Source of the DNA: Rhodobacter capsulatus SB 1003
GTDB taxonomy: Bacteria > Pseudomonadota > Alphaproteobacteria > Rhodobacterales > Rhodobacteraceae
Length of the DNA stretch: 32,000 bases
Assembly (NCBI RefSeq): GCF_000021865.1
Contig: NC_014035.1
Coordinates: 100,963 to 132,962 of the forward strand
Direction: 5' to 3'
Shown here: piece after piece, positions 1,852 to 16,504 of the stretch
How positions within the stretch are numbered: the first letter of the stretch is position 1
Layout: every line of letters begins with the position of its first letter
Notes under the pieces: model-generated
The model's input: the letters and a program-made list of their open reading frames with translations, nothing else
Database searches by the model: none
What the model was told of the DNA's origin: nothing
Program-made: the position numbers and the translations under genes

Positions 1852-2421
1852 TCAGGCCGCGGTGGCGCCGCGGGCGCGGAGGATCGGCCAGGCCCGCTTG
1901 ACCGACAGCGCGACCGCGGCGGTGATCCCCGCCTTGACCAGATCGCCCGGGATGAAGGGGGCGGATCCCAGCGCGGCCGCCTTGAGCGACAGCCCCGCCT
2001 GTACCGCCAGCACCGGAACGCCGAGGCCATAGAGCACGACGATGCCGCCGATCGTGGCAAAGACGAACGAGCGGAGCGCGGTCAGGCGTTTCCAGCCCAG
2101 CTCGTGCAGCAGGCCGGTCACATAGGCGGCCGGGATCCAGCCCAGCAGGAAGCCGACCGTCGGCCCGGCAAAGACGCCCAGCCCGCCGCGCCCGCCCGAC
2201 AGGATCGGCAGCCCCAAAGCGACCAGCACGACGACAAGCCCCATCGCCAGCGCGCCGCGACGGGCACCGATGACCGCGCCCGCGAGCATCGGCCCCATCG
2301 ATTGCGCGGTGATCGGAACGCCGATCAGCGGCAGGGTGATCGGCGGAAACAGCGCCAAAGCGGCCGTCAGCGCCGCGAAAAGCGCGATCAGGACGATGTC
2401 GCGGGTGGAAAGGGAAGTCAT
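1852..2421 (-). CDS. bioY: Biotin ECF transporter S component BioY
   Basis: 189-aa hydrophobic protein with BioY-family sequence (ITAQSMGPMLAGAVIG..., GGRGGLGVFAGPTVGFLLGW). It is the last gene of a bioM-bioN-bioY arrangement. Confidence 0.9.
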   Translation of the reverse strand: MTSLSTRDIVLIALFAALTAALALFPPITLPLIGVPITAQSMGPMLAGAVIGARRGALAMGLVVVLVALGLPILSGGRGGLGVFAGPTVGFLLGWIPAAYVTGLLHELGWKRLTALRSFVFATIGGIVVLYGLGVPVLAVQAGLSLKAAALGSAPFIPGDLVKAGITAAVALSVKRAWPILRARGATAA

Positions 2422-2443
2422 CGCAGGGGTCCTTCGGAGGGGG

Positions 2444-3037
2444 TTATCGGGAAATGGCGGCGCCGTCGTGATGACCGGACCGGGCCTCGATCGCCTCGGC
2501 GACCTCGTCGGCGGTCTTGAGAACGCGCAGGATCAGCGGCAGGATCAGCGCCAGAGGATGGGTGCCAAGACCGCGCGCCGCCTGGGCTTCGCGCACCCGC
2601 AGCGCCTCGTCGCGGATCACCGGCAGGAAGCGCAGCGCCAGCGCCAGCGCCAGACCGACCTTGGCCGGGTTGACGCCGAGCGGCGCCAGCGGGGCCAGCA
2701 GCCGTTCCAGCGTCGCGATCAGATCTTCGGTGCGGGTGGTCAGGGTGACCAGCGCGGCGAGCAGGATCAGCGTCAGGATCCGCAGCACGACCAGCGCGGC
2801 CAGGCTCCAGCCCGCCAGCCAGCCCTGCACCGGAAAGAGGATCGCCAGCATCCACAGCAGCGGCGCGACCTGCGCCCGGATCTGCGCGCGGCCGAAGCCC
2901 GCCAGCCGGAAGCCCGCCAGCGTCAGCGCCAGCGCGGCCAGCATGATCGCGGGCGCTTCGACCAGCATCAGCCCGGTTCCGGCCAAGGCCAGCGCGGCCA
3001 GTTTCGGTCCCGGCGGGCAGCGGTGCAGGGGGCTCAT
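2444..3037 (-). CDS. bioN: ECF transporter transmembrane (T) component BioN (CbiQ/EcfT family)
   Basis: 197-aa membrane protein with a C-terminal ...ALRFLP...EA..ARG... EcfT-type signature. Its ATG overlaps the bioM stop (ATGA) and it lies between bioM and bioY. Confidence 0.85.
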   Translation of the reverse strand: MSPLHRCPPGPKLAALALAGTGLMLVEAPAIMLAALALTLAGFRLAGFGRAQIRAQVAPLLWMLAILFPVQGWLAGWSLAALVVLRILTLILLAALVTLTTRTEDLIATLERLLAPLAPLGVNPAKVGLALALALRFLPVIRDEALRVREAQAARGLGTHPLALILPLILRVLKTADEVAEAIEARSGHHDGAAISR

Positions 3038-3795
3038 GTCATCCGCTCCACATAGGACCGCAGCGCCGGGCCGGGTTCATCATCGGCGACGATCCGGCCC
3101 TGATCAAAGACCAGCACGCGGTCGAAACCGGCCAGCAGCGGCAGGTCATGGGTGACGACGATCGCCGTCTGTGCCAGATCGGCGATCACCTGCCCGATCC
3201 GGCGGGCATTGCGCAGATCCAGCAGCGTCGTCGGCTCGTCGAAGACGATGCAATCGGGCGCGGTGATCAGCACGCCCGCAATCGCCAGCAGCTGTTTTTG
3301 CCCGCCCGACAGCCGATGCGCCGGGGCCTGGCGCAGATCGGCCAGGCCGAAACGGTCAAGGATCGCGGTGACTTTCGCGGCGCGCTCCGCCGCGCCGGAC
3401 TTCTGGCCCTTGAGTCCGAAGGCGATGTCTTCCTCGACCGTGGGCAGGACGATCTGGGTATCGGGGTTCTGAAACACGAAGCCGACCTTGCGCCGTACCG
3501 CCCTGGCCTCGCGGGCGGTCTCCAGCCCGTCGATGCGCACCGTGCCGCGGTCGGGCAGCATCAGCCCGTTCAGCAATCGCGCAAACGTGCTTTTGCCCGA
3601 CCCGTTCGCGCCGACGATGCCAATGCGCCGCTCGGTCAGGGTCACGGAGATCCCGCGCAGCACGTCGCGCCCGTCAAAGCTTTGAAAAACATCGGAAATT
3701 TGTATGGTGGTGGGTGCCGCAGGCAGGGAAGGAAGGGCACTGCCTGCGGCGCCTTGCAACCGCAAGCTGCTGGCGACAATACTTGAAACCATCAT
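3034..3795 (-). CDS. bioM: ECF transporter ATPase BioM (ABC ATP-binding protein)
   Basis: Walker A GANGSGKST, signature LSGGQKQ, Walker B IVFDEPT. The start is uncertain: the ORF is open to GTG 3837, and ATG ATG at 3795/3792 is the last start upstream of the ABC core. The N-terminal ~35 codons are compositionally atypical and contain a 14-bp hairpin. Confidence 0.85.
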   Translation of the reverse strand: MMVSSIVASSLRLQGAAGSALPSLPAAPTTIQISDVFQSFDGRDVLRGISVTLTERRIGIVGANGSGKSTFARLLNGLMLPDRGTVRIDGLETAREARAVRRKVGFVFQNPDTQIVLPTVEEDIAFGLKGQKSGAAERAAKVTAILDRFGLADLRQAPAHRLSGGQKQLLAIAGVLITAPDCIVFDEPTTLLDLRNARRIGQVIADLAQTAIVVTHDLPLLAGFDRVLVFDQGRIVADDEPGPALRSYVERMT

Positions 3796-3862
3796 CGGTT
3801 TGCCCCATTTCACTTGTGGTTGCATGGTTCTGGTCACTCGGTTGGACGTTCCGCCAAGAAAA

Positions 3863-4624
3863 TCAACCGAAGAGAGCGGCGAGGGTCATGTAACCGACCG
3901 AGGGCACCATCAGGCAGCCGAAGCCGGTGTAGAAGGTCGCCGTCAGCGCGCCATAGGGCACCAGTTTCGGATCGGTCGCGGCAAGGCCCGCGCTGACACC
4001 GCTCGTCGTGCCCATCAGACCGCCGTAAACCGCCGCCGCCGCAGGCGTCGTCAGCCCCGCGGGTTTCGCCAGAAGCGGCGTCAGGATCATCACCGCGATG
4101 GATTTCACCACACCGGCCGCCACCGAAAGCGCGATCACCTCCGACGAGGCGCCAAGCGCAGCCCCGGTCACCGGACCGACGATGAAGGTCGTCGCCCCGC
4201 CGCCGATCGTCGCCATGTCGACCACGCTCGTATAGCCGAAGGCATAGGCCACCGCCGCGCCGATCGCGGTCGAGATGATGACCGAAATCACCAGCGCGAT
4301 GCCGCCCGCCAGACCGGCTTTCTTCACCTCTTCCAGTTTCACCCCGAAGGCGGTCGAGACGATGGCGAAATCGCGCAGCATCGCGCCGCCCATCAGCCCG
4401 AAGCCCGCGAACAGCGAGACATCCGAAATGCCCTTGCTGCCGCCGGTGACCTTGCCGCCGATATAGGCCAGCACCAGCCCCGCGACGATGGCGATGGCCG
4501 AACCGTGGATGCGGTTGTTGACCAGTTTGCCGATCGCATAGGAAATCCACATGATCACGCCGACGATGGCGAAGGCGGTGATCAGCGGCAGTTTTTCCAG
4601 CGTCCCAACAATGATGTCGAGCAT
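3863..4624 (-). CDS. madM: Malonate transporter subunit MadM
   Basis: 253-aa polytopic protein of the MadM family. ATG at 4624 is preceded by AAGGAG and sits 1 nt after the madL stop. It is paired with madL, as in the Malonomonas rubra mad cluster. Confidence 0.9.
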   Translation of the reverse strand: MLDIIVGTLEKLPLITAFAIVGVIMWISYAIGKLVNNRIHGSAIAIVAGLVLAYIGGKVTGGSKGISDVSLFAGFGLMGGAMLRDFAIVSTAFGVKLEEVKKAGLAGGIALVISVIISTAIGAAVAYAFGYTSVVDMATIGGGATTFIVGPVTGAALGASSEVIALSVAAGVVKSIAVMILTPLLAKPAGLTTPAAAAVYGGLMGTTSGVSAGLAATDPKLVPYGALTATFYTGFGCLMVPSVGYMTLAALFG

Positions 4625-4625
4625 G

Positions 4626-5027
4626 TCATTTTGCTCCTTGCGCAGCGCGTTTGGCCGCGTCTTCGGTTTCGGCGGTGCCACCAAGCGCCGCCAGCGGACG
4701 GATCAGCAGGAAGCCGGCAACAACCGGCAGGAAACCGGCGATGAAGGCCATGGTGCCCGCATCGAAGGCCGCAACGACGTTCTGGCTGGCCGCCATGGCG
4801 ACGACGATCGGAATATACATCGCCGACCAGAATTTGATGCCGTCCTGCGCCAGTTCCGACATCCGCTCGCGGTCGATGAACCAGCGCGAGATGACGACCA
4901 AAAGCAGCATCGCGATGCCGACGCCGCCCACGTCGGCATCGATGCCGACCATGTGCCCGATCAACTTGCCGATGATCACGCCTGCGATCAGGCAGCCGCT
5001 CATCAGCGAGACCCCGTAAATCAACAT
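4626..5027 (-). CDS. madL: Malonate transporter subunit MadL
   Basis: 133-aa hydrophobic protein of the MadL family. A strong RBS (AAGGAGGA) lies upstream of the ATG at 5027. Confidence 0.9.
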   Translation of the reverse strand: MLIYGVSLMSGCLIAGVIIGKLIGHMVGIDADVGGVGIAMLLLVVISRWFIDRERMSELAQDGIKFWSAMYIPIVVAMAASQNVVAAFDAGTMAFIAGFLPVVAGFLLIRPLAALGGTAETEDAAKRAAQGAK

Positions 5028-5058
5028 GTCTTCTGTCCTCCTTGATCGGCGGAGAAGA

Positions 5059-5079
5059 GCGCCTGCCCCGTGCAGGCGC
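5059..5079 (-). terminator. Stem-loop between madF and madL (possible attenuator or partial terminator)
   Basis: GCGCCTGC (5059-5066) and GCAGGCGC (5072-5079) form a perfect 8-bp stem with a 5-nt loop. The minus-strand RNA continues UCUUCUCC, followed by the madL RBS. Confidence 0.35.
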
Positions 5080-5093
5080 CCGTCCGCCTGTCC

Positions 5094-5303
5094 TTATTCG
5101 ATGATCATGATCACCGCACCGGGTTTCAGACGGTCGCCCGGGTTGACGGCGATCGACTTCACCGTGCCGTCGATCGGCGCGGGGGTGTCGTTCTTCATCT
5201 TCATCGCCTCGACGACGGCGACGCATTGCCCCTTGGTGACGGTGGCGCCCACCGCGACCTCGATCGAGACGATCACCGAGGGCATCTTCACTTTCACATC
5301 CAT
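5094..5303 (-). CDS. madF: Biotin carrier protein of malonate decarboxylase (minimal biotinyl domain), MadF-like
   Basis: 69-aa protein with the canonical biotinylation motif EAMKM (VAVVEAMKMKND). It overlaps the upstream gene's end by 10 nt. Confidence 0.85.
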   Translation of the reverse strand: MDVKVKMPSVIVSIEVAVGATVTKGQCVAVVEAMKMKNDTPAPIDGTVKSIAVNPGDRLKPGAVIMIIE

Positions 5304-6046
5304 TGCCTTTTCCTTTCTGGCTGTTTGATTGGGTGTTGCGGGTCGGGCCGCGCCGGGGGCGGGGCCTCGAAAAGGGAGATCAGGTGGGGGCGCTCGATCA
5401 GCTCGACGCCGGTGATGGTCTTGCCCAGCACCGAGCGCGCCCCCGACAGAAGTTCGGTCAGCTTGACGCCGATGCCGCCGGGCAGGGCGACTTCGGCATC
5501 GACCGCCAGGCCGCGCCGTTTCGCCAGCGTGGCCAGCATCGTTGCCAGTTGTTCCAGCGCGCGCAGGCTCTCGGCGCGGACCACCAGATCAAGATCGGAG
5601 TCCGGGCGCAGATAGGGCAGGCCGGTCACCGTCTGCAGCGCGGCCGAGCCGATCAGGCCGATCTCGACCCCGGAGAGGGCGCCTGCGCGGGCGATCTCGG
5701 GCAGGGCGGGATGCAGGTTCGGGCCGAGGATCAGGGCGCGGTCCATCACCTCCCAGGGGGTGAAAAAGGCCGAAACCTGGCCGCGCCGCACCGGCACCGC
5801 GGCGCGCACCCGTTCGGCGCCGTGGCGGAACGGGAAGGAGAACCCGAGCTGGCCGCCGCCATCGGGGCAGGGGCCGGTGGGACGGCAGACGATGCCGGGG
5901 ATATGCGCCTTGCTCATCGCGTCGCGCACCAGCTTGCGGGTGCCGGGGTCGCGCATCTGCTCGGGCAGCGCGTCAAGAACCGCGGCCAGGATGCCCGGGC
6001 GCGAGGCGGGCGAGACATGGGCAAGGCTGTGACGGATGCGGAACAT
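5294..6046 (-). CDS. madK: Malonate decarboxylase holo-ACP synthase (phosphoribosyl-dephospho-CoA transferase), MdcG/MadK family
   Basis: Contains the MdcG-family core ...GS.AL...G..YL...SDLDLVVRA.... Its ATG lies 1 nt after the upstream stop (TGAGATG). Confidence 0.8.
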   Translation of the reverse strand: MFRIRHSLAHVSPASRPGILAAVLDALPEQMRDPGTRKLVRDAMSKAHIPGIVCRPTGPCPDGGGQLGFSFPFRHGAERVRAAVPVRRGQVSAFFTPWEVMDRALILGPNLHPALPEIARAGALSGVEIGLIGSAALQTVTGLPYLRPDSDLDLVVRAESLRALEQLATMLATLAKRRGLAVDAEVALPGGIGVKLTELLSGARSVLGKTITGVELIERPHLISLFEAPPPARPDPQHPIKQPERKRQWM

Positions 6047-6047
6047 C

Positions 6048-7133
6048 TCAGCGCCTCTTGATCCAGGCGGGGTCGGTCTTGGCGCTTTGCGCCATGTCGC
6101 GCTGCGCGGTGACCAGCGTGTCGAAAAGCACCGTCGCCTCCGGGCCTTCGATCACGATCGGCGCGGCCCGGCCAAGCGCGGGCACCAGTTCCAGCCGCGT
6201 CGCCCCGGCCCCCACCGTCAGACCCTGCGCCACCTTCACCACCCGGCTCTTGATGCGCAGGATGGTGCGGGCGGTCTTTTCGATCACCTCGGCGGCGGTG
6301 GCGGGGGTATGGGTGACGATCACCTCGTATTCCGGATAGGTGCGGGCGCGGCGATAGGTGATGATCCGCCCCGCGCGGTCGCAGACATGCCCGGCGTCGG
6401 ACACGACGAAACTGTCGCCCATCGGCAGACCGCCCACGACCAGTTCCCGCCAGGGATCGCCCAGAGGCGAGGGGACCAGCGAAATATCGGCGCGCAGCGG
6501 GCGGCCATCCAGCACCAGCCAGCCGAATTCCTGACAGCCGTAAAGATCGTGCACGGCATAGCCAAAGGCCTCGGCCACCGGCAAAAGCTCGGCATCCAGC
6601 GGCGTTCCGGCACACAGAAGCACGCAGCCCTGCGGCATCCGCGGCTTCAGATCCAGCCGCAGGGCCTGTTCCAGCGTCGCGCGCAGGAACGAGGATTCGC
6701 CAAGGATCAGCCGCGGCTGCTCGCGGCAGGCGGCCAGCAACAGCGCATCGCGGCTGGAGCGTTCCAGATGCGACCAGACCAGGCCGCAGCCCTCAAGCGC
6801 CTGTTTTGAAAACACATTCACCAGCGGCGGATAGGTGACAAGCATCCGTTCGCCCGCCGGGATCTGCAGCCGCCCGAAAATCTCCCGGGCGACTGCATTG
6901 CGGTTTTCCAGCTCGGCATGGGTCACGCCGACGATGGTCTGAAAGGCCGACGATCCGGTGGTGAAGGTCAGATAGGCCAGATTGAAGGGGGTGTGGACCT
7001 CCTCGATCACATGCGCCGCGGTGGGGCCCGCGATGCCCTTGTGCGCCAGCGTGCGGCGGGGCATTTCCGCCAAAGTCGGCACCGCGCCTTGCAGGCTCAG
7101 CGCGTCTTCGAGGGCTTTGAGATCGTCTGACAT
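6048..7133 (-). CDS. madH: Adenylate-forming (PaaK/F390-synthetase-like) enzyme at the madH position; putative ACP-SH:acetate ligase
   Basis: FTTGSS nucleotide-binding-type motif and overall ANL/PaaK-like layout. No CitC-type HxGH motif was seen. Function is inferred from its position between madD and madK. Confidence 0.55.
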   Translation of the reverse strand: MSDDLKALEDALSLQGAVPTLAEMPRRTLAHKGIAGPTAAHVIEEVHTPFNLAYLTFTTGSSAFQTIVGVTHAELENRNAVAREIFGRLQIPAGERMLVTYPPLVNVFSKQALEGCGLVWSHLERSSRDALLLAACREQPRLILGESSFLRATLEQALRLDLKPRMPQGCVLLCAGTPLDAELLPVAEAFGYAVHDLYGCQEFGWLVLDGRPLRADISLVPSPLGDPWRELVVGGLPMGDSFVVSDAGHVCDRAGRIITYRRARTYPEYEVIVTHTPATAAEVIEKTARTILRIKSRVVKVAQGLTVGAGATRLELVPALGRAAPIVIEGPEATVLFDTLVTAQRDMAQSAKTDPAWIKRR

Positions 7134-7167
7134 CTTCGTCTTCCTTTGGCCGTCGGTCTTTCGGGGC

Positions 7168-8061
7168 TCAGCGGCTGGGCGCGTAGCGATCCGCCACGGC
7201 GGCGAAATCGCGGCTCATCATCTCGATGACGCGGGGACGCTCGATCCGGCCGCCGCGGGCTTCGCCCAGCTTGCCGCGGCCCCAGGGGCCAAGATCGTCC
7301 TGCCGTCCCTCCAGCTTCGCGGCCCGGACCTCGGCGATCCGCGCGACGATGGCGGGGCGCATGCCATCGAGCGTCTCGACCAGCGCCTCGACGCCGCCAA
7401 GCGAGTGGAAGAAGCGCGGACCGGCGGCAAAGACGGCGCTTTGCTTCGACAGGACTTCCAGCGTTTCCAGATCCTTGCGGATGATCCGCGAGACCGAGGT
7501 CAAGGGCATCACATGGATCATCGTGCCGAATTGCGCATCGAGCGACAGGATCGCATCGGCCTGCAGCCCGTGGCACAGGAACGCCCCCGAGATCGCCCGG
7601 CCGATCACCATGGCGATGATCGGATGGCCCTTCAGCCGCGCCTCGGCCAGCGCCAGCTGATAGGCGGCGGTCGATTTGTTCATGCCGAAGATTTCCTCGA
7701 CCTTGCCCGGGCCGTTGCCGGGGGTGTCGACGATCAGCACCAGCGGCCGTTTTTCCGCCAGCGGCTTTTCGGCATCCTCGATGATCGAGGCATAGACCGC
7801 CTCGGCCATCTTGTAGCCTTCCTCCAGCCCGATGATCCCGGCGTAGACCACCGGGAATTTCTCGTTCATCGCGCCGCCATCCGAGGCGATGATCGTGCAG
7901 ACCGTGCCTTGCAGCGTCGCGGTGCCGACGACCGCGCCCGGCCCGAATTCGGGATCGTCGAAGCTTTTCGCCCCCACGGTGCCCTCGGCGAAGCTGCCCG
8001 CATCGACGATCATCTCGATCGCGTCGCGGCCCCGCCCCATCATGCTTTCCTGCATGTCCAT
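7168..8061 (-). CDS. madD: Malonate decarboxylase carboxyltransferase subunit (MadD; MdcE/gamma-like, AccA-type half)
   Basis: AccA-like carboxyltransferase sequence (LVLIVDTPGNGPG...IIAMVIGRAISGAFL). It lies directly downstream of the MdcD-like subunit. Confidence 0.85.
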   Translation of the reverse strand: MDMQESMMGRGRDAIEMIVDAGSFAEGTVGAKSFDDPEFGPGAVVGTATLQGTVCTIIASDGGAMNEKFPVVYAGIIGLEEGYKMAEAVYASIIEDAEKPLAEKRPLVLIVDTPGNGPGKVEEIFGMNKSTAAYQLALAEARLKGHPIIAMVIGRAISGAFLCHGLQADAILSLDAQFGTMIHVMPLTSVSRIIRKDLETLEVLSKQSAVFAAGPRFFHSLGGVEALVETLDGMRPAIVARIAEVRAAKLEGRQDDLGPWGRGKLGEARGGRIERPRVIEMMSRDFAAVADRYAPSR

Positions 8062-8080
8062 GATTTTTCTCCTTTTCGGG

Positions 8081-9037
8081 TCAGACGGCGAGACGGCGCA
8101 CAGTGGCCAGAAACTCGGACAGGGGCAGGTCGATCAGCCCGTGGGCGTCAGTGTTGCCCGCCCGCGTCCAGACATCGGTCGCATCAGAGGGTTGCATCTC
8201 GGCCGCCAGCGCCACGGCGCGCAGCTGCGCCTTGACCTTGGCGGGCGAACCGATGCGGCGCATCTCCTCGAAGGCCTCGATCGAAAGCCCGGCCAGCGCC
8301 GAGACCTGCTCGCGGAAGGCCGCGACGGTGTTTTCGACCAGGAAATTCGCATCGCCCATGATGAACTTGTGCCGCCCGCCGGTGGTGCGGTAGACAAGCG
8401 CGCGGTCAGAGGCGTCGAATTCCTCCTTGCCCATTTCCTGCTCGATCACCTCGGGGCCGGTCAGGCCAAGGCGGCCGAATTCCGACATGATGATCACGTC
8501 GGTGGCGGCGGCGACGAAGCCCATCCCGCCAAAGGCGCCGACCTTGGAGCCGATCAGCGCGATCACCGGCACCTTGCCGCGGGCCTTTTGCAGCTGGTCC
8601 ATCACCTCGGCATGGGCCAGAAGCCCGGCGTTGGCCTCGTGCAGCCGCACGCCGCCGGTCTCGAAGGAAATCACCACGAGGGGCTTTTCCTCTTCGTCGA
8701 GGTCGTCGAATTGCGCCACAAGATCGTCATGGAAGTCGATCGCCAGCTTGATCGTGTTGACCATTTTCGCGCCGCCGATCTCGCCGACCGAGCCGCCGAT
8801 GAAGCGGCCTTCCTGCGAGATCACGAAAACGGGGGTGCGGCCGATCTTGCCGACGCCGGTGACGATGCCGTCGTCAAAGGCCACGGCATCGCCGAGCAGG
8901 GCCAGGTGCGGGCTGGTCACCCGGTCGAAGGGGCCGGCCAGTTCGGTGAAGCTGCCCTCGTCCACCAGACCGATGGCACGGTCGCGGGCCGAGGCTTCAA
9001 GGAAGCTGCGGGGTTGCAGGTCTGTCCAGTTGGTCAT
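8081..9037 (-). CDS. madC: Malonate decarboxylase carboxyltransferase subunit (MadC; MdcD/beta-like, AccD-type half)
   Basis: N-terminus RSFLEASARDRAIGLVDEGSFTEL is typical of MdcD. ATG at 9037 is preceded by GGAGAG. The 34-codon upstream extension in the ORF track is Arg-rich and unlikely to be translated. Confidence 0.9.
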   Translation of the reverse strand: MTNWTDLQPRSFLEASARDRAIGLVDEGSFTELAGPFDRVTSPHLALLGDAVAFDDGIVTGVGKIGRTPVFVISQEGRFIGGSVGEIGGAKMVNTIKLAIDFHDDLVAQFDDLDEEEKPLVVISFETGGVRLHEANAGLLAHAEVMDQLQKARGKVPVIALIGSKVGAFGGMGFVAAATDVIIMSEFGRLGLTGPEVIEQEMGKEEFDASDRALVYRTTGGRHKFIMGDANFLVENTVAAFREQVSALAGLSIEAFEEMRRIGSPAKVKAQLRAVALAAEMQPSDATDVWTRAGNTDAHGLIDLPLSEFLATVRRLAV

Positions 9038-9051
9038 CTCGTCTCTCCGCC

Positions 9052-9360
9052 TCAGGCCGCGGCCAGCGCCTGTTGCAGGCGCAACAGCACGACGGCGGGG
9101 GTGGCGTTGTTGTCGTTGATCTCGATGCGGGCGTCGCAAAGCCCGGACTCGTCGAGGAATTTCTGCAAGACGCGGGTCCAGAGCGCGTCAAAGCCGGTGA
9201 CGGGGGTGACCACGGTCACCGCGACGCGGCCCGAAAGGTCTTCGGGATGCATCATGATTTCCAGATCGCTGGATCCGGTGACGCCCACATGCAGGCGGGC
9301 TTGGATCTTCGTCTTCGGCGCGGCGGCGGCCAGATCCAGGGTGAGAGTGTGCAAGGCCAT
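9052..9360 (-). CDS. madE: Malonate decarboxylase acyl carrier protein (MadE/MdcC, delta subunit)
   Basis: 102-aa CitD/MdcC-like protein with the prosthetic-group serine region GVTGSSDLEIMM. Confidence 0.85.
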   Translation of the reverse strand: MALHTLTLDLAAAAPKTKIQARLHVGVTGSSDLEIMMHPEDLSGRVAVTVVTPVTGFDALWTRVLQKFLDESGLCDARIEINDNNATPAVVLLRLQQALAAA

Positions 9361-9374
9361 GATTTTGCCTGTCT

Positions 9375-11048
9375 TTACCAGTTGCGGAAGCGGGCGGGCG
9401 GGTTGTAAAGGCCGCCGGACCAGGTCACGAGATCGCGCATGCTTTTCGCGGCCAGCAGGTCGCGGTTGGCACGGGCGGGGTTGATGCCCAGATCGGAGAC
9501 GGTCTTGACGATGCCCGCCTCGCGCAGGGCGCGGGTTTCTTCGGGTTTCGCGGCAAGGCCGATGTCGGTGAAGCCCGCGACGGCGCGGATGGCGGCCATG
9601 CGGGCCTCCATGTCCTTGCAGCGGTTCAGGTAGGCGATGCCTTCCTCGGTGACGATATGGGTCAGGTCGTCGCCGTAGATCATCACCGGCGGGATCGGCA
9701 GATCGGCATCCCGCGCCAGTTTCCAGGCGTCAAGTTCGTCGACAAAGACCGGGGCACGGCCCTCGCCGAAGGTTTCAACCCCTTGCACCACAAGGCGTTT
9801 GCCGCGCGGCAGATTGCCGATGTCACGCTCGAGCGAGGGCAGTTCCTGGCCGCATTTCAGCCAGGCGTCGGTCGGGTGGCGCCGCCCCTTGGCATCGCAG
9901 CCCATGTTCGGCGCGCCGCCGAAGCCGGCCACCCGGCCCGCCGTCGCGGTCGAGGAGTTGCCGTATTTGTCGATCTGCAGCGTGCCGCCGATGAACATGT
10001 CGATGGCGTAATGCCCCGCCGTCTGGGCAAAGGCCCGGTTCGAGCGCAGCGAGCCGTCCGGCCCCACGAAGAACACGTCCGGCCGCGAGGCGACGTAATC
10101 TTCCATGCCCAACTCACCGCCGAAGCAATGGATCGTGTCGACCCAGCCTTCCTCGATCGCCGGGATCATGGTCGGATGCGGGTTCAAGATCATATGCGTG
10201 CAGCATTTGCCCTTGAGCCCCAGTTCCAGACCATAGGTCGGCAGGATCAGTTCAATGGCCGAGGTCAAAAAGCCGATGCCGTGGTTCATCGAGCTGACGC
10301 CATATTCGGCATAGATCCCCTTCAGGCACATCATCGCCAAAAGGATCTGGCTGTCGGTCACCAGCGCCGGATCGCGGGTGAAAAGCGGCTCGATGAAGAA
10401 CGGCTTCGGCGATTGGATCACCGCATCCACCCAGTCGCCCGGAATATCGACGCGCGGCAGTTCGTCAACGATTTCATTGACCTGCGCGATGACGATGCCT
10501 TCGCGGAACTTTGTCGCCTCGACGATGGCGGGGGTGTCTTCGGTGTTGAAGCCGGTGTAAAGGTTGCCCTTGCGGTCAGCCTTGTAGGCGCAGACGAGCG
10601 AGACCCGCGGCGTCAGGTCCAGGAAGTAGCGGCCGAAAAGTTCCAGATAGGTGTGGATCGCGCCCAGCTCGATCTTGCCATTGGCGATGAATTTCGCCAC
10701 CCGCCCGGCTTGCGGCCCGCCAAAGGCGAAGTCGAGTTTCTTGGCGATGCCGTTTTCAAAGAGATCCAGATGCGCGGGCAGCGGCACCGCCGATTGCACC
10801 ATGTGCAGGTCATGGATCTTGCCGCGGTCAACCTTGTTCAGGCATTCGGCCAGGAAGTCGGCCTGTTTCTGGTTGTTGCCTTCGATGTTGATGATGTCGA
10901 AGGGGCGGATCACCGCTTCCAGAAGCGCCACCGTATCCTTGGCGAGCACTTCCTTGCCCTTGACATAGAGGGGCGCTGCCGCCTCCTTGCGCGCGGCGGT
11001 ATCTTCCGCCCGCTTGCGCCAGCTGTTGCGCTTGTCTTGCTGCGTCAT
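9375..11048 (-). CDS. madA: Malonate decarboxylase alpha subunit (acetyl-S-ACP:malonate ACP transferase, MadA/MdcA)
   Basis: 557-aa protein with the length and sequence of the MdcA family, flanked by the other mad genes. Confidence 0.93.
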   Translation of the reverse strand: MTQQDKRNSWRKRAEDTAARKEAAAPLYVKGKEVLAKDTVALLEAVIRPFDIINIEGNNQKQADFLAECLNKVDRGKIHDLHMVQSAVPLPAHLDLFENGIAKKLDFAFGGPQAGRVAKFIANGKIELGAIHTYLELFGRYFLDLTPRVSLVCAYKADRKGNLYTGFNTEDTPAIVEATKFREGIVIAQVNEIVDELPRVDIPGDWVDAVIQSPKPFFIEPLFTRDPALVTDSQILLAMMCLKGIYAEYGVSSMNHGIGFLTSAIELILPTYGLELGLKGKCCTHMILNPHPTMIPAIEEGWVDTIHCFGGELGMEDYVASRPDVFFVGPDGSLRSNRAFAQTAGHYAIDMFIGGTLQIDKYGNSSTATAGRVAGFGGAPNMGCDAKGRRHPTDAWLKCGQELPSLERDIGNLPRGKRLVVQGVETFGEGRAPVFVDELDAWKLARDADLPIPPVMIYGDDLTHIVTEEGIAYLNRCKDMEARMAAIRAVAGFTDIGLAAKPEETRALREAGIVKTVSDLGINPARANRDLLAAKSMRDLVTWSGGLYNPPARFRNW

Positions 11049-11078
11049 TTGCTTTCGTCTTCCTCCTTCAGAGGGTTT

Positions 11079-11909
11079 TCAAAGGGTTGCCTGCGTCGCG
11101 GCGAGGGGGATCTCGCCGAAGATGACGCTGTGAAGGGTGCCGTCGGCGGTGCGCAGACAGAGCGCGCCATCCGGGCCAAGCGCCTCGGCGATGCCCTGAC
11201 GGGGGGCTTGCGGGGCGGAAAGGGTGACGGGCTGGCCCAGCGTGCAGGAGCGCACCGACCAGGCATGCCGGGCGGGCTCGAAGCCGAGGCGTTCCCATTC
11301 GGTCAGCCGGTGGTCGAGCCGTTCGACCAGCGCCGCGAAAAGATCGAAGCGGTCGACCTTGCGGCCGGTTTCGGCGCTGATCGAGGTGGCGATGGCTTGC
11401 AGCTCCGGCGGGAAATCCGTGCGGTTCTGGGCGATGTTGATGCCGATGCCCGCGATGATGTGATCCAGATCGCCTTCGGGGGTCAGCACCAGTTCGCACA
11501 GGATGCCCGAAAGCTTGCGGCCCGCGACCATCAGGTCGTTCGGCCATTTGATTTGCGGCGCAAGGCCCGTGCTGCGGGTGATGGCCTCGGCCGCGGCGAC
11601 GGCGATGACAAGCGTCACCTGCGCCAGATCGGCCAGAGGGCGGGAGGGACGCAGAAGCACCGAGGCGAGCAGGCTTTCCCCGGGACGCGAAACCCAGGGT
11701 CGGTCGTATTTGCCCCGTCCGGCCGTCTGATGATCGGCCAGAACGATGGTGCCCGTGGGCGCGCCCCTCCGCGCCAGACCGGCCAGGAAGCTGTTTGTGG
11801 AGGACAGAACGGGCCGGTGGTGGACCGCGCAGCCGATCCCGGTCCGACGCCGGACGGGAAGGGCAAGCGTCGGGAGGTTCGGGAGAAGATCGGGATGGTG
11901 CGCGGTCAT
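11079..11909 (-). CDS. birA: Biotin--protein ligase (class I BPL, no N-terminal HTH)
   Basis: Motifs HQTAGRGKYDRPW (GRGRxGRxW type) and IKWPNDL. 276 aa with no DNA-binding domain. It is embedded between madB and madA. Confidence 0.85.
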   Translation of the reverse strand: MTAHHPDLLPNLPTLALPVRRRTGIGCAVHHRPVLSSTNSFLAGLARRGAPTGTIVLADHQTAGRGKYDRPWVSRPGESLLASVLLRPSRPLADLAQVTLVIAVAAAEAITRSTGLAPQIKWPNDLMVAGRKLSGILCELVLTPEGDLDHIIAGIGINIAQNRTDFPPELQAIATSISAETGRKVDRFDLFAALVERLDHRLTEWERLGFEPARHAWSVRSCTLGQPVTLSAPQAPRQGIAEALGPDGALCLRTADGTLHSVIFGEIPLAATQATL

Positions 11910-11944
11910 GGGTTTGCTCCTGTGAGCGGGTCAGGGACGGTCGG

Positions 11945-13153
11945 TCAGTTGACCAGACCGATGGTCGAGGCGAAGACACCGACGGCGATGGCCGAGACGA
12001 TGACCCCGCAGATCGAGGCGCCCATGGCGAGCGGCATGATCATGGCGTGGGGGTTGGCTTCGAAGGCTTCCTTCTGGGCGATCTTCGCGGTCGAGGGCAT
12101 GCAGGAGACGCCGGCGATACCGATGACGGGGTTGTAATTGCCCTTCGACAGTTTCCAGACCAGATAGCCGCCGCCGATGCCGCCAAGCGCCGAGACGGCC
12201 AGCGCGGTGATGCCAAGGATCAGCAGCAGCGCGACTTGCGGATCAAGCAGGGTTCCGGCTTCGCACAGCGTCCCCAGCACCAGGCCCAGAAGCAGGGTCG
12301 AGGCGTAAGTGACGGTGTTTTCAAGGAACTTCTGGTAGGGCTCGATTTCCGCTTCCTTGATCGCGACGCCGAGGAAGAACGACAGGATCAGCGGCGTGGC
12401 GACGGGCAGCAGCAGGCACAGCAGACCGGCGGCAACCACGGTGAAGATGAATTTCGCCTGCGGCGTGACATCGGGGAAGTCGTAATCGACTTCGATGGCG
12501 CGGTGCTCTTCCTTGATCAGCCAGCGCACCAGATAGGGGTAGCCCGCATAGGTCAGCGACAGATAAAGATAGGCGATGATCGAGATCGGCACGAAGAGGT
12601 TCTTCGCCATCATCAGCGAGCCAAAGAGCACCATCGGACCATCGGCGCCGCCGATCGTGCCCACGGCCGCGGCTTCACCGGGCGTCAGGCCGCAATAGTA
12701 ACCGATCACCAGCGTCACGAAGGTGCCCAGTTCCGCGCAGACCGCGACCGCGATCGAGGCCCAGGGCCGGGCGAGGATGAAGGAAATGTCCGCCATCGTG
12801 CCGATGCCCATGAAGAGCATGCAGGCCACCAGCGAGTTGACGAAGGTGAAGTTGTAGATCGGCTGCAGGAAGTTGATCTGCATGATGTCCATGAGCGCAT
12901 TCGTCTCGGATACCAGGGGCGAGATCACCAGCGTGCCGACCTGGCCGCCTTCCAGGATCATCACGCCGGCGTTGACCGCCATCATGCCAAGGCCCATCGG
13001 CACCATGATCAGCGGTTCCAGCGTGCGCTTGAAGCCCAGATAGGCCAGCAGGAAACCAAGCCCGATGAACGCCAGACGGGCGAAGGAAATCAGCGGGTCC
13101 TGGATGAAGAGTGTCCCGATACCGGGAAAGATGTTGAACAGGGTCTCAAGCAT
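11945..13153 (-). CDS. madB: Na+-translocating decarboxylase beta subunit (OadB/MmdB family), MadB
   Basis: 402-aa polytopic membrane protein with OadB-family sequence throughout (MLETLF...LEPLIMVPMGLGMM...). Confidence 0.9.
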   Translation of the reverse strand: MLETLFNIFPGIGTLFIQDPLISFARLAFIGLGFLLAYLGFKRTLEPLIMVPMGLGMMAVNAGVMILEGGQVGTLVISPLVSETNALMDIMQINFLQPIYNFTFVNSLVACMLFMGIGTMADISFILARPWASIAVAVCAELGTFVTLVIGYYCGLTPGEAAAVGTIGGADGPMVLFGSLMMAKNLFVPISIIAYLYLSLTYAGYPYLVRWLIKEEHRAIEVDYDFPDVTPQAKFIFTVVAAGLLCLLLPVATPLILSFFLGVAIKEAEIEPYQKFLENTVTYASTLLLGLVLGTLCEAGTLLDPQVALLLILGITALAVSALGGIGGGYLVWKLSKGNYNPVIGIAGVSCMPSTAKIAQKEAFEANPHAMIMPLAMGASICGVIVSAIAVGVFASTIGLVN

Positions 13154-13162
13154 TTGAGCGCC

Positions 13163-13279
13163 TCAGGATGCGTTGGGAGAGGAGAGGAGTTTCGAGATGC
13201 CGACGATCACGCCGATCACCGCAAAGGAGATCGCGGCGGTGATCAGGTAGCTGAAGGCGGCATAGGTGATGATGTTCAT
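13163..13279 (-). CDS. 38-aa single-TM hydrophobic peptide (possible OadG-like accessory subunit)
   Basis: MNIITYAAFSYLITAAISFAVIGVIVGISKLLSSPNAS. Its ATG at 13279 is preceded by GAGG and starts 7 nt after the madG stop; its own stop lies 9 nt before the madB start. Its position immediately upstream of the beta subunit mirrors oadG-oadA-oadB logic. Confidence 0.45.
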   Translation of the reverse strand: MNIITYAAFSYLITAAISFAVIGVIVGISKLLSSPNAS

Positions 13280-13286
13280 GGATGCC

Positions 13287-14243
13287 TCAGGGGTTGCAGG
13301 GGGCGAAGGGCAGGGCCTCCGCGGGGAAGATCGGGGGCAGCTCGCCCCCGGAAAGCGCATCGACGCCAAGGGTCACGGCCAGAAGATCGGCCGCGCCGCC
13401 GGGGCTGATGTGTCGTTCGATGAACCGCGCATCGAGCGCGTGGATCGCCGCCAGCCCGTCGCCGGTCAGCGCGCCGCCAAGGGCGAGGATCTTGCGGGCC
13501 TCGGTCCGCATGAAGCTCAGCGCCGCGGGACCGCCGCGCCACAGCACGGTGGTGTCCTCGGTCTCGGCCATCAGCGCGATCAGCGTGTGGCACAGGCTGG
13601 TGGCCAGCGTCGCGCCGCTGGCGCGGGCGGCGCGCAGGGCGGGCAGGCCGTGGTTGCGCACGGTCGGATAGCCCGCCTCGGCCTCGCCGCGGATGCCAAG
13701 GACACCGTATTGACGAAACAGTTTCTCGCCCGCGGTTTCGGCCTCGCGGTGCAATCCGGCGCGCAATTCGCGGTCGCAGATCCCGGCGACCATCGCCGCG
13801 GCGGTGTCGAACAGCGCCGCCTCGGTCAGGTCGTCCCTGCGGGCGGCCAGCCCCGCCGCCGCCGCCAGCACGCCCGCCGAAAACAGCAGCCCGCGCTGGG
13901 TGTTGACGCCGCGCGTCGCGGCCAGAAGCCGGGCCTCGTAGATCTCGCCGATGGCGCGCACCCGGGGCAGCAGCGTCAGGGCCGGGCCGGCATGGTCAAG
14001 CCCGGCCTCCGCGCATTGGTAAAGACAGGGCGCAATCACCGCCGAAGAGACCATGAAGGTCTGCAGGTTCATGTCCCGATGCGCGCCGTTCGAGCGCGGC
14101 GTCACCAGACCGGGTTTGGGATGGGTGGAGATTTCCAGCAGCGCCCCGGTCAGGAAAGCCGATCCGATCGACCAGGCGCTGGTTTGCGGTGACAAGGCAA
14201 TGTCGCTGAACCAGTCCAGCGGCCTGCGCAACGCGTATTTCAT
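13287..14243 (-). CDS. madG: Triphosphoribosyl-dephospho-CoA synthase (MadG/MdcB, CitG family)
   Basis: CitG/MdcB core motif THPKPGLVTPRSNGAHRDM. ATG at 14243; the ORF is open to a TTG at 14261. Confidence 0.9.
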   Translation of the reverse strand: MKYALRRPLDWFSDIALSPQTSAWSIGSAFLTGALLEISTHPKPGLVTPRSNGAHRDMNLQTFMVSSAVIAPCLYQCAEAGLDHAGPALTLLPRVRAIGEIYEARLLAATRGVNTQRGLLFSAGVLAAAAGLAARRDDLTEAALFDTAAAMVAGICDRELRAGLHREAETAGEKLFRQYGVLGIRGEAEAGYPTVRNHGLPALRAARASGATLATSLCHTLIALMAETEDTTVLWRGGPAALSFMRTEARKILALGGALTGDGLAAIHALDARFIERHISPGGAADLLAVTLGVDALSGGELPPIFPAEALPFAPCNP

Positions 14244-14284
14244 GGGTTTCGTCCCGCGCAACTGACGGCAGCGCGGCGCTTCGT

Positions 14285-14299: not shown

Positions 14300-14422
14300 C
14301 ACGGCCAATGCAGGGATTACCTCTGGTCGGGGAAACCGTCAGACATGCGCCACACCGATGTCACTTGCTCACGCGGCGCTTTGGGTTCGTCAGCCGTCGC
14401 AGCCCCACGCGGGCAGACGGCT

Positions 14423-14486
14423 CATCACGGGATCACGGCCCTGTCGGGCAGCTTCGCCTCACGTCCTTGTGATCGTTCGTGATCCG
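14423..14486. repeat. Four GATCAC-type hexamers arranged as two tandem pairs in inverted orientation
   Basis: CATCACGGGATCACGG (14423-14438) and GTGATCGTTCGTGATCCG (14469-14486). They can form two 6-bp helices (GATCAC:GTGATC and ATCACG:CGTGAT) around a ~32-nt loop. Confidence 0.7.
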
Positions 14487-14563
14487 AAGCATGGCAGCAT
14501 CGTTACGCCTGTCGCCCGGGCTTGTCCAGAAATCGTTTTCAGGGCGCAAGAGGCTGCGTCAAA

Positions 14564-14640
14564 GCGCCGCAGTTTTGCAGCTATTCATGGCAAAATCAAT
14601 GACTTGGCAAAAATGGAGCCAGCTTTGCAACAGCGGCGCG
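14564..14640 (-). promoter_or_regulatory. AT-rich core of the mad leader with nested dyads; candidate promoter/operator
   Basis: This is the only AT-rich stretch in the ~500-nt intergenic region. It is bracketed by GCGCCGC (14564-70) and GCGGCGC (14633-39). Inside are TTTTGC-N11-GCAAAA (14573-14595), GCAAA-N12-TTTGC (14607-14628) and two direct TGGCAAAA copies. Confidence 0.35.
14606..14621 (-). promoter_or_regulatory. Sigma-54-like -24/-12 element TGGCTC-N5-TTGCC facing the mad operon
   Basis: The minus strand reads TGGCTCCATTTTTGCC. The GG and GC dinucleotides are at the consensus spacing of TGGCAC-N5-TTGC. No enhancer-binding protein gene is present in the window. Confidence 0.2.
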
Positions 14641-14743
14641 CGGGAATTGGCCCGCGGCTTGCGGCTCGCGTTTTCGTCAACGGCGACAGGCGATTGCGGC
14701 GCGGCGGCAGGCCGGGCGGCAATCGCCATGCAGCCATGGAAGT

Positions 14744-15160
14744 CTAGATATGCATCACCCCGAAGCCGATGCGTTCGTGGTTCGTCGTGGGATGAAAGGC
14801 CGATTCGCCATGCGCGGCGACGGCGACCCAGTGCCCGTCCGAGACCAGCGCCACCTTGAGCTTGAGGTTCGATTCCGCCACCACCGTCGCCGAGACCCCC
14901 TGCAGGCATTCCAGCCCGGCGTGAATCACCCCGTGCACGGCGCCCGGGCGGTTGTGGATCACCCCGCCGTTCAGCGCACAGGCGACGATCGACTTGACGA
15001 AGCCCTTTTCGATTTCGGACCGCCGCCCGGTGACATAGGTGATCCCCACCTTCCAGGTCGGATGGGCCAGGATCTGCTCCTTGATCAGGTCTTCCTCTTC
15101 GCGGCTGCTGATGGCGGCCATGATGGCGGCCTTGCCGATTCTGTCTGCTGTGACTTGCAT
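14744..15160 (-). CDS. HutP-family protein
   Basis: The 138-aa protein aligns end to end with Bacillus subtilis HutP as I recall it: RIG near the N-terminus, WKV, GVI, HGVIHAGLECLQGV versus HALYHATMEALHGV, WVAV versus WIAV, and the C-terminal HERIGFGVMHI versus HETFGVGINHI. Confidence 0.8.
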   Translation of the reverse strand: MQVTADRIGKAAIMAAISSREEEDLIKEQILAHPTWKVGITYVTGRRSEIEKGFVKSIVACALNGGVIHNRPGAVHGVIHAGLECLQGVSATVVAESNLKLKVALVSDGHWVAVAAHGESAFHPTTNHERIGFGVMHI

Positions 15161-15265: not shown

Positions 15266-16504
15266 TCAGCCGTCGGGATCCGCCTTCACGAAGCGGCTCA
15301 TGGCGCTGCCGATGTCTTCGGACAGCCGCAGGATGGTCTCCAGCCGGGCCTTGATCTCGGCGTGAAACAGATCGAGCTGATCGATCGTCGAGACCAGACC
15401 GGCGCCGTTTTCGCGCAACCGGCCGCATTCGACGCGCCCCATCACCCGGATCGTGTCCAGACCCAGCATCAGCCGCCGGATCTCCGCGCTGGATCGGGCC
15501 AGCTCCTCGGCATGGCCGACCGCAGTCGTCAGCGCGGCATGGCTGTCGCGCCGGGTGGCGCCGCGTGCCTCGGCCAGTTTCGCGGCCTCGGTCTGCCAGT
15601 CCAGCCCGGGAACCGGCTCGGCCTGCCGGAAGGTCGCGATCATTTCCGCCATCACCCGATTGGCCCCCAGCAGGAAAAGCGCCCGCGCCACCTCGCGCGA
15701 GACGCGGTCGCACAGATTCTCCCGGCCGCTGACGAAACTGCGCAGCCGGTCCGAGATCACCAGGCTCGAGGCGCGGTAATTCTCGGAGATCGCCGAAACC
15801 GGCCCGCCCGAGGGTTCCAGCCGCGAGGCGACAAGGCGCATGTTGTTCGGGATCGACTGCAGCGATTCGAAACTGCGCAACAGCTTCTTCTGTTCCTGCG
15901 TCACCCGTTCGAGGGCCTCGTTCATCTCGATCAGCCGCCGGGTGCGCGGGTCTTCCGGGCGGCCAAGCCGATGGTCGCGCGCGGCCAGTTCCTGCCCCAA
16001 AGCGCTGGCCATGAAGGTGGTGTAGCTGGTGAATCCCGCCTCGGTGATGATCGTCCAGAGCCTGCGCGCGCTGTCGCCGGGATCCAGTCGCTCGGCGCGT
16101 TCGCGGGCCGCAAGCTCGGCATAGACCTTGCGGATCTGCGCGAAAAGCGGCGTCGAGGGCTTGAGACGGACCGACAGGAACCCGCCCTCGGTGGGCAGGA
16201 TCACCGCGAAGACCCAGTAGAAATCGCCATTGCGGGCGCGGTTCTTGACATAGCCGCCCATCGGAAAGCCGTTGCCAAGCGCATCCCACAGGATGCGAAA
16301 CACCGCACGGGGGGTGTCGGGGTGGCGGATGATCTTGTGCGGCGCGCCCAGAAGCTCTGACCAGGCGAAGCCGGAGACATTCTGGAAGACATCGTTGCCT
16401 GCCAGAATGACCCCGCGCGGATCGGTCCGCGAAAAGAAAAGATCGTCGAGTCGAAAATTGACCTCGCCCTCGGGCTGGCCGGAGAGATCGCGCTGATGAG
16501 TCAT
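15266..16504 (-). CDS. Soluble Aer-type PAS sensor protein with a degenerate MCP-signalling-like helical C-terminal region
   Basis: The N-terminus matches the Aer PAS domain (FFSRTDPRGVILAGNDVFQNVSGF...LLGAPHKIIRHPDTPRAVF..LW..L..G.P..GYVKNRARNGDFYWV). No TM segment is present. The C-terminus has two segments that only faintly resemble the MCP hairpin tip: IPNNMRLVASRLEPSGGPVSAISEN and IRVMGRVECGRLRENGAGLVSTIDQ. Confidence 0.75.
   Translation of the reverse strand: MTHQRDLSGQPEGEVNFRLDDLFFSRTDPRGVILAGNDVFQNVSGFAWSELLGAPHKIIRHPDTPRAVFRILWDALGNGFPMGGYVKNRARNGDFYWVFAVILPTEGGFLSVRLKPSTPLFAQIRKVYAELAARERAERLDPGDSARRLWTIITEAGFTSYTTFMASALGQELAARDHRLGRPEDPRTRRLIEMNEALERVTQEQKKLLRSFESLQSIPNNMRLVASRLEPSGGPVSAISENYRASSLVISDRLRSFVSGRENLCDRVSREVARALFLLGANRVMAEMIATFRQAEPVPGLDWQTEAAKLAEARGATRRDSHAALTTAVGHAEELARSSAEIRRLMLGLDTIRVMGRVECGRLRENGAGLVSTIDQLDLFHAEIKARLETILRLSEDIGSAMSRFVKADPDG

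Follow-up and report, generated by a model that had tools for sequence, protein, structure and literature searches.

A HutP-family protein beside the malonate decarboxylase operon of Rhodobacter capsulatus and the repeated units of the operon leader

HutP has so far been treated as a Bacillus-specific curiosity with histidine as its one effector, and a 2025 review of RNA-binding antiterminators describes it only for Bacillus and for histidine. The presence of a HutP-like gene on a 32-kb stretch of the Rhodobacter capsulatus SB 1003 genome (contig NC_014035.1, positions 100,963 to 132,962; the whole stretch is called the window, and its coordinates are used throughout) raises the question of what such a protein senses and regulates in this organism. 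The gene (14744–15160, minus strand) is separated by a gap of 500 nt from a downstream operon on the same strand for the decarboxylation of malonate. The original prediction, made from the letters of this stretch, had proposed a HutP homologue with a retained metal site and a different effector, in a family characterised only in Bacillus; the last statement is consistent with the review, which names Bacillus alone. On the evidence set out below, we consider it probable that the gene encodes a HutP-type, ligand-gated RNA-binding regulator that is dedicated to malonate catabolism and not to histidine.

The protein, its metal site and its ligand pocket

The open reading frame, for which the original prediction had given no strand, starts with ATG and encodes 138 amino acids; the window is 98% identical to three R. 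capsulatus strains. The Pfam HutP profile (PF09021) matched the protein over its full length, with residues 8–136 on profile positions 1–128, 119.8 bits (cut-off 25) and E = 1.1e-34, and in a sequence search of the PDB the HutP chains were the only meaningful matches. Profile-profile alignment by hhalign, in which 52 close homologues were compared with 22 canonical HutPs, gave a probability of 98.5% and E = 2.4e-15. The AlphaFold2 monomer model (predicted local distance difference test, pLDDT, 91.3; predicted template modelling score, pTM, 0.87) has the element order H-H-E-H-H-E-E-E and the alpha/beta fold of HutP, a four-stranded antiparallel sheet with flanking helices. When this model was searched with Foldseek, the top 11 PDB matches were all HutP (template modelling score 0.71–0.80, best E = 3.5e-9), the best ones including the structures 4ok9, 1vea and 1wmq. 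The homology claimed in the original prediction was thus borne out by profile search, model and structural comparison alike: the protein is a confident member of the HutP family, and the relationship is far beyond chance. It shares the Pfam family and the fold with HutP of B. subtilis (PDB 1wmq, 1vea, 4h4l), from which it differs in having only about 24% identity and in failing the equivalog model of that protein, NCBIfam NF002838, with 31.2 bits against a cut-off of 155.

To locate the metal and ligand residues, equivalences were taken from phmmer and hhalign, and the B. subtilis numbering was checked against the PDB chain. H73, H77 and H138 of B. subtilis HutP, which we take from the crystal-structure literature to be the ligands of the divalent metal, align to H76 and H80, both within HGVIH, and to H128, within T126-N-H-E-R130 (TNHER), so that the triad is complete; E81 is kept as E84 in HAGLE. 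The first two histidines and the glutamate had been placed correctly by eye, but H138 had been assigned to the C-terminal MHI, which instead matches N146-H147-I148 of B. subtilis, H147 being conserved as H137. In spite of this misplacement, the proposal of a retained divalent-metal site stands, with the three histidine positions and E81 all present in the alignments. The metal-binding histidine positions and E81 are therefore features common to the two proteins.

The rest of the pocket is different. R88 of B. subtilis corresponds to A91 in GVSA, as had been predicted, and the region of R98, where LKLK had been noticed, is a loop shortened by 3–4 residues (N98-L-K100-L-K102), in which K100 is set against R98 by phmmer and a gap by hhalign. 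Moreover, E137 is replaced by N127, and an 8-residue loop of B. subtilis HutP (108–116) is deleted. R88 and R98, both invariant in the 22 canonical HutPs, presumably take part in the binding of L-histidine, and we likewise assume a role for E137. Among the 88 members of the TNHER clade examined, named after the motif around H128, the position of R88 is occupied by V, S, P, A or L and never by Arg. H76 and H80 are invariant in all of them, and so is H128, in this last case partly by construction, as the residue lies inside the search pattern; E23, K102, W111 and H137 are also invariant, as are N127, E129 and R130, but these three fall within the pattern.

No hut genes were present in the 32-kb window, and sites of the form UAG-N4-UAG-N4-UAG were absent from it even when one mismatch was allowed. 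Since the equivalog model failed and hut genes are lacking nearby, an effector other than histidine is very likely for the R. capsulatus protein; the loss of R88 agrees with this and with what the original prediction had deduced.

The HutP superfamily is small: a set of 1.84 billion proteins contained 66 clusters of it at 50% identity. The 1014 clusters of related proteins at 90% identity carry names such as 'HutP family protein', 'Hut operon positive regulatory protein', 'transcriptional regulator' and 'hypothetical protein'; such public names are generic or misleading. None of the names on these clusters mentions MadY or MadZ of Malonomonas rubra. In the wider superfamily (proteins P0173–P0233), many uncharacterised variants of the H138 motif were observed (among them TNHRR, AHHER, TNHCR, TEHSR and TNHNR), mostly in Firmicutes-like proteins, some of which have long N-terminal extensions.

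Gene context in the window and in related genomes

The presumed target, the mad operon (3863–14243, minus strand), encodes a complete biotin-dependent, Na+-pumping malonate decarboxylase of the Malonomonas mad type. Its gene order is madG (CitG family, 13287–14243, minus strand, ATG at 14243), a 38-residue membrane peptide, madB (OAD_beta), biotin-protein ligase, madA, madE (acyl carrier protein), madC, madD, madH, an mdcG-like gene for an MdcG-type transferase, madF (biotin carrier), madL and madM. The HutP-like gene is the sole regulator-like gene flanking this operon in the window, where a malonate regulator of LysR or GntR type was not found near it. As in B. subtilis, the regulator gene lies 5' of catabolic genes with a leader in between; the presumed regulon here is malonate instead of histidine.

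To see how general this arrangement is, 80 loci with homologues were collected by scanning one genome per species with the TNHER search pattern, and were typed by tblastn with the Mad proteins of the window and the proteins of a second locus type. In 65 of the 80 loci the homologue had Mad genes or a family-III coenzyme A (CoA)-transferase as neighbours. Mad-specific genes were present in 51, while in 14, including Sporomusa malonica, only the family-III CoA-transferase was found, directly downstream; four loci, of Thermoanaerobacter, had OAD_beta only, and the other 11 none of these neighbours. The loci come from Alphaproteobacteria, Desulfovibrionaceae, Gilliamella, Saezia, Spirochaetes, Negativicutes and Clostridia, and the clade thus differs from known HutP in occurring also in Gram-negative phyla. 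In locus L003 the HutP-like gene is followed by CoA-transferase, MadL, MadM, carboxyltransferase, OAD-gamma, biotin carrier and OAD-beta. We read the Mad and the CoA-transferase loci, from their gene content, as two enzymatic routes that probably have malonate as their common substrate, and the gene context as a whole points strongly to malonate.

The homologue is variously placed: upstream at a long distance, in divergent orientation to madG, behind madM, or between the genes for biotin ligase and madA. Such variation fits a regulator better than an enzyme subunit.

Several loci showed features of their own. In Bacteroidota (L032, L034, L036 and L004, e.g. Segatella copri) the HutP-like gene precedes an operon for a V-type ATPase, and in L004 it also follows an OAD-beta gene; AGUGUA repeats flank the HutP-like gene at the Bacteroidota loci and extend over its start codon, a hint of autoregulation and of a regulon other than malonate. 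In Thermoanaerobacter (L051, L052, L056 and L057) gene and terminator precede only a small membrane peptide and OAD-beta, and malonate-specific genes are absent at these four loci. Two HutP-like paralogues were found in L084 (4077–4475 and 7001–7420) and in L044 (7001–7417 and 7710–8111). In Phascolarctobacterium (L074, 4490–4628, plus strand, and also L077) madB is preceded, at a distance of about 330 nt, by a cobalamin riboswitch, an unexpected element for the operon of a biotin enzyme.

Repeated units in the mad leader RNA

The strongest evidence for the mechanism comes from the leader RNA, which had escaped notice in the original prediction. The 3' 290 nt of the intergenic region of the window are far better conserved among Rhodobacter species than its 5' part, and leaders of this kind are rich in regularly spaced GUG. 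A criterion of at least four GTG in a chain missed most leaders and was replaced by counts of pairs and by a structured pattern. In 60 leaders, the sense strand carried 89 pairs of GTG 8–9 nt apart and the antisense strand 4, compared with 14.6 expected from shuffles. The units fall into two clusters, as in the RNA target of HutP, which also consists of two clusters of short repeated units; the HutP word is UAG with a period of 7 nt, whereas here the units are GUG(A)/AGNG with a period of 8–9 nt, and one cluster is displayed in a closed hairpin loop.

This latter cluster, site B, lies at 14347–14379 (minus strand) and was matched by a covariance model with 42.3 bits and E = 7e-7. A stem GCGCC/GGCGC closes the loop gcGUGagcaaGUGacaucgGUGu, which contains three GUG units 8–9 nt apart; throughout the alphaproteobacteria the element is a stem of 4–5 bp closing a loop of 23–25 nt with three GUG units. 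The pattern C[AG]CC-N1-3-GTG-N4-7-GTG-N4-7-GTG-N1-4-GG[TC]G had 21 matches in 2 x 1.09 Mb, all of them on the sense strand and in mad leaders, and shuffled sequences gave 0–2. At the variable position of the stem, 12 sequences have A-U and 4 have G-C, and in none is the pair lost; the next outer pair, which is outside the search pattern, occurs as GC, UA, CG and UG. In 500 shuffles, the covariation score, the fraction paired and the count of double-sided changes were not reached once. The model also found five mad leaders that were not in its seed (L017, L022, L033, L039 and L043). Locus L045 has two site B hairpins (6649–6687, minus strand, and 9875–9913, plus strand), of which one precedes madG and the other a transporter unit, madLM, that stands apart; the two copies in one genome indicate a small regulon.

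Site A, identified by pattern search at 14419–14436 (minus strand), reads GUGAUCCC-GUGAU-GAGCC: two GUGA units 8 nt apart are followed by a GAG unit that begins the next hairpin. The pattern is unique in the window (0.16 expected). In every alphaproteobacterial leader a site of the form GUGAY-N3-4-GUGAY-N1-4-GAGC is found 63–89 nt 5' of site B. The hairpin that follows, T1 (AGCCGUC...GACGGCU, 14392–14422, minus strand, -20.9 kcal/mol), overlaps the last unit of site A with its 5' arm; it is present in all Rhodobacter leaders with inner sequences that differ between species. The copy in the window has no U-run. The equivalent hairpin of R. rubrum is followed by the U-rich tail UCUUUGU and was flagged as terminator-like.

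In low-GC relatives the arrangement is more explicit. A textbook intrinsic terminator stands 3' of the gene in Sporomusaceae, Phascolarctobacterium, Thermoanaerobacter, Halothermothrix, Gilliamella, Saezia and two deltaproteobacterium-like contigs. In Firmicutes, three units of AG[U/G]G type with a period of about 8 nt occupy the 5' flank and the 5' arm of the terminator; the units are GAGUGAAU-GAGGGACA-GAGUGGAA in L058 and UAGUGAUU-GAGUGAUA-GAGUCGUA in L052. A pattern of three units and a U-run had 21 matches in 419 kb, all on the sense strand (0–6 in shuffles), most of them directly 3' of the gene; two are the cobalamin riboswitch. Units that overlap an intrinsic terminator are known from HutP as well, and the low-GC layout is that of HutP, except that the word is modified and the period is longer by one nucleotide. 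In the Sporomusaceae loci L058, L062 and L073, a second AGUG/GAG cluster, AGAGUGAGAUAGAGGGAAUGAGCAUG, overlaps the ribosome-binding region of the regulator itself, which suggests translational autoregulation. At the loci of spirochaetes there is an analogous GUG-rich loop, but the stem that closes it, UUCUUCG/CGAAGAA, is unrelated.

A search of Rfam gave no match in the window leader at E<=10, and on six related loci it returned only a tRNA and a cobalamin riboswitch.

Further elements were noted in the intergenic region 5' of site A, all on the minus strand. Just 3' of the stop codon of the regulator, sequence and alignment indicate a hairpin (GGCGAUUGC...GCAAUCGCC, 14689–14727), which is the probable end of the regulator's own transcription unit; the other Rhodobacter species have a canonical hairpin with a U-run in its place. 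The regulator of Rhodobacter, as a separate transcription unit with a mad leader that lacks a U-run terminator, differs in this from HutP. A promoter-like sequence, CTGGACA-N17-TAACGAT, is located at 14499–14529, with a predicted start site near 14490; its CTGGAC(A/T) box is conserved in alphaproteobacterial mad leaders, and the R. rubrum equivalent was flagged by a sigma-70 scan. About 30 nt upstream of this box lies the imperfect palindrome TGCGGCGCTTTGACGCA (14555–14571; consensus in the alignment of Rhodobacter species TGCGAC-N-GTCGCA), a possible DNA operator of an additional DNA-binding regulator. A sigma-54-like TGGCTC-N5-TTGC at 14607–14621 is not conserved in other Rhodobacter leaders and was dropped.

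Regulatory mechanism, alternatives and meaning

By analogy with HutP, the regulator would be hexameric, and each face of the hexamer would offer three pockets for RNA. The effector-loaded form would bind the two GUG(A)/GAG clusters in the mad leader RNA of about 250 nt, namely site A (14419–14436) and the hairpin loop of site B (14347–14379). Once bound, the protein would, at site A, keep the adjacent hairpin T1 from forming, and it would also hold site B fast in the local hairpin, so that transcription and/or translation would continue into madG...madM, i.e. the regulator would be an activator. In the crystal of HutP with RNA, a 21-mer runs full circle on one face of the hexamer, nucleotide 22 meeting nucleotide 1, and a closed loop of 23–25 nt with three units would therefore fit one face; we infer that the site B loop serves one face and site A the other. 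The step controlled in R. capsulatus could be the formation of T1, with or without Rho, the access of ribosomes, or the stability of the RNA. The hexamer, the binding of RNA, the direction of control, the controlled step and the identity of the effector are all parts of a model drawn from these comparisons.

As for the effector, histidine is held in the crystal structures of HutP as a chelate on the His-bound metal, and malonate is a bidentate metal chelator. Malonate chelated on a divalent metal held by H76/H80/H128 would be the most likely ligand, because both linked enzyme routes have malonate as their substrate, and on the analogy with HutP it is plausible. K102 and R130 are invariant in the TNHER clade but not in canonical HutPs, R130 being within the search pattern, and one may speculate that they are carboxylate contacts. 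According to the 2025 review, HutP too senses the substrate of its own operon, histidine.

Several observations weigh against this reading. A scan of the window leader found no sense-strand hairpin followed by a U-run that could serve as terminator. The pattern and the model of site B were derived from the loci on which they were tested, a circularity that the shuffles, the strand bias and the new matches mitigate. The members of the clade were collected with a pattern for the TNHER motif, so that its invariance is partly by construction. Malonate genes are missing from 15 of the 80 loci, and the V-ATPase operons of Bacteroidota, the OAD-beta-only loci of Thermoanaerobacter and miscellaneous other contexts keep the same conserved residues; the effector, therefore, need not be malonate across the clade. 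Finally, Na+-linked neighbours recur (MadB/OAD-beta, V-ATPase, SSF and MadLM), so that another signal is possible.

The alternative that survives best, although we regard it as doubtful, concerns the step at which control is exerted. Binding to the leader could act on the initiation of translation, on RNA stability or on Rho-dependent termination and not on an intrinsic terminator, for example by opening a helix in which site B is paired, at long range, with the sequence just 5' of the madG ribosome-binding site. Both RNAalifold and RNAfold pair the whole of site B, over about 23 bp, with GCGCCGCGCUGCCGUCAGUUGCGCGG (14254–14279, minus strand), which ends in GGGA, the likely Shine-Dalgarno sequence of madG; the lack of a U-run terminator in the window leader and the repeat units that overlap the regulator's own start region in several relatives are in favour of the same idea. 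By contrast, the helix shows almost no covariation and has an energy z of about -1.3, the duplex scores between site B and the madG start region scatter in 18 alphaproteobacterial leaders from z -2.1 to +2.4, and the low-GC relatives clearly use intrinsic terminators.

It is rather unlikely that the same RNA-binding architecture responds to something other than malonate, be it another dicarboxylate, acetate or acetyl-CoA, a divalent metal alone, a Na+-related signal or no ligand at all. Members with the same residues do occur beside V-type ATPase (L004, L034 and L036), at an OAD-beta-only locus (L051) and beside SSF symporters (L044 and L068), the same AGUG-type repeats are found at these V-ATPase, OAD-beta and SSF loci, and Na+-coupled functions are a common theme. 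Against this, 65 of the 80 loci are of malonate type, both enzyme routes use malonate, and catabolic antiterminators usually sense the substrate, as HutP does with histidine.

Much less probable is a role outside regulation, in which the protein would serve the Na+-pumping malonate decarboxylase as an accessory or in its assembly. This could be thought of since in many Firmicutes the gene lies inside the operon, between biotin ligase and madA, but the gene goes with two different enzyme systems and often has divergent or separate transcription; it is always accompanied by strand-specific repeat elements in RNA and by terminators, and those members of the fold that have been characterised are all RNA-binding regulators. 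An ordinary HutP orthologue controlling histidine utilisation, as database names like 'Hut operon positive regulatory protein' would have it, can hardly be reconciled with the equivalog score, the lack of hut genes and of UAG-N4 repeats and the loss of R88.

The preferred reading, a malonate-dedicated regulator of HutP type, can be extended beyond R. capsulatus. Tentatively, and with somewhat less than an even chance of being right, we propose that the TNHER clade comprises unrecognised, cross-phylum, metabolite-gated RNA-binding regulators, whose founding function would be to sense a malonate-metal chelate and which would use a new RNA operator, made of three GUG units in a closed hairpin loop of 23–25 nt and of a linear cluster overlapping with a hairpin. 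High-GC alphaproteobacteria may use a step other than intrinsic termination, for instance Rho-dependent termination or ribosome access, and sister members of the clade may gate Na+-bioenergetic modules such as V-ATPase and OAD-beta.

Other features of the window complete the picture of the locus. The 38-residue hydrophobic peptide between madG and madB (MNIITYAAFSYLITAAISFAVIGVIVGISKLLSSPNAS, 13163–13279, minus strand) is a candidate for a small subunit of OadG type; peptides like it are encoded ahead of madB/OAD-beta in Gilliamella, in Saezia and in a metagenome-assembled genome of Desulfovibrionaceae. The gene for biotin-protein ligase, between madB and madA (11079–11909, minus strand), keeps this position in most Mad-type loci. 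Directly downstream of madM lies a biotin transporter of energy-coupling factor (ECF) type, bioMNY (1852–3837, minus strand), composed of an ATP-binding cassette (ABC) ATPase (3034–3837), a CbiQ-like protein (2444–3037) and BioY (1852–2421), which would couple biotin uptake to the biotin-dependent decarboxylase. The remaining neighbours are ChrA, a methyltransferase, a ROK regulator with a sugar ABC system, an SBF-like transporter, an EAL protein and a PAS protein of 412 amino acids (15266–16504, minus strand) with an N-terminal PAS_3 and no other Pfam match. This last was considered as a partner and rejected, as the two genes are neighbours in just one further R. capsulatus strain.

Among known systems, the proposed regulator is alike to TRAP of Bacillus, a ligand-activated ring oligomer that binds multiple leader triplets of G/UAG type with short spacers and decides whether a terminator forms; TRAP differs in its unrelated fold, its 11 subunits, its effector tryptophan, and in promoting termination rather than preventing it. 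The malonate-responsive switch, which is the presumed role here too, is performed elsewhere by MdcR (LysR family), MdcY and MatR (GntR family), but these are DNA-binding factors of biotin-independent mdc or mat systems, and genes of their types were not found near the R. capsulatus mad operon. A full-text search of the literature gave nothing on HutP-like regulators of malonate genes, and nothing relevant was found on mad regulators, on madY/madZ of Malonomonas or on malonate in R. capsulatus. Scaffold and principle are those of HutP, while the regulon, the probable effector, the RNA word with its presentation and the phyletic range are new.

If the proposal is true, the HutP scaffold would be a reusable sensor, in which the metal site has been kept while the chelating ligand and the RNA word have been swapped. 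The compact protein-RNA pair might be used as a malonate biosensor, a cis-regulatory RNA motif absent from Rfam would be added to those known, and a widespread misannotation would be corrected. Above all, it would supply the missing regulator of the biotin-dependent, Na+-pumping mad systems, which occur in purple bacteria, in gut Negativicutes (Phascolarctobacterium), in Gilliamella of the bee gut and in others.

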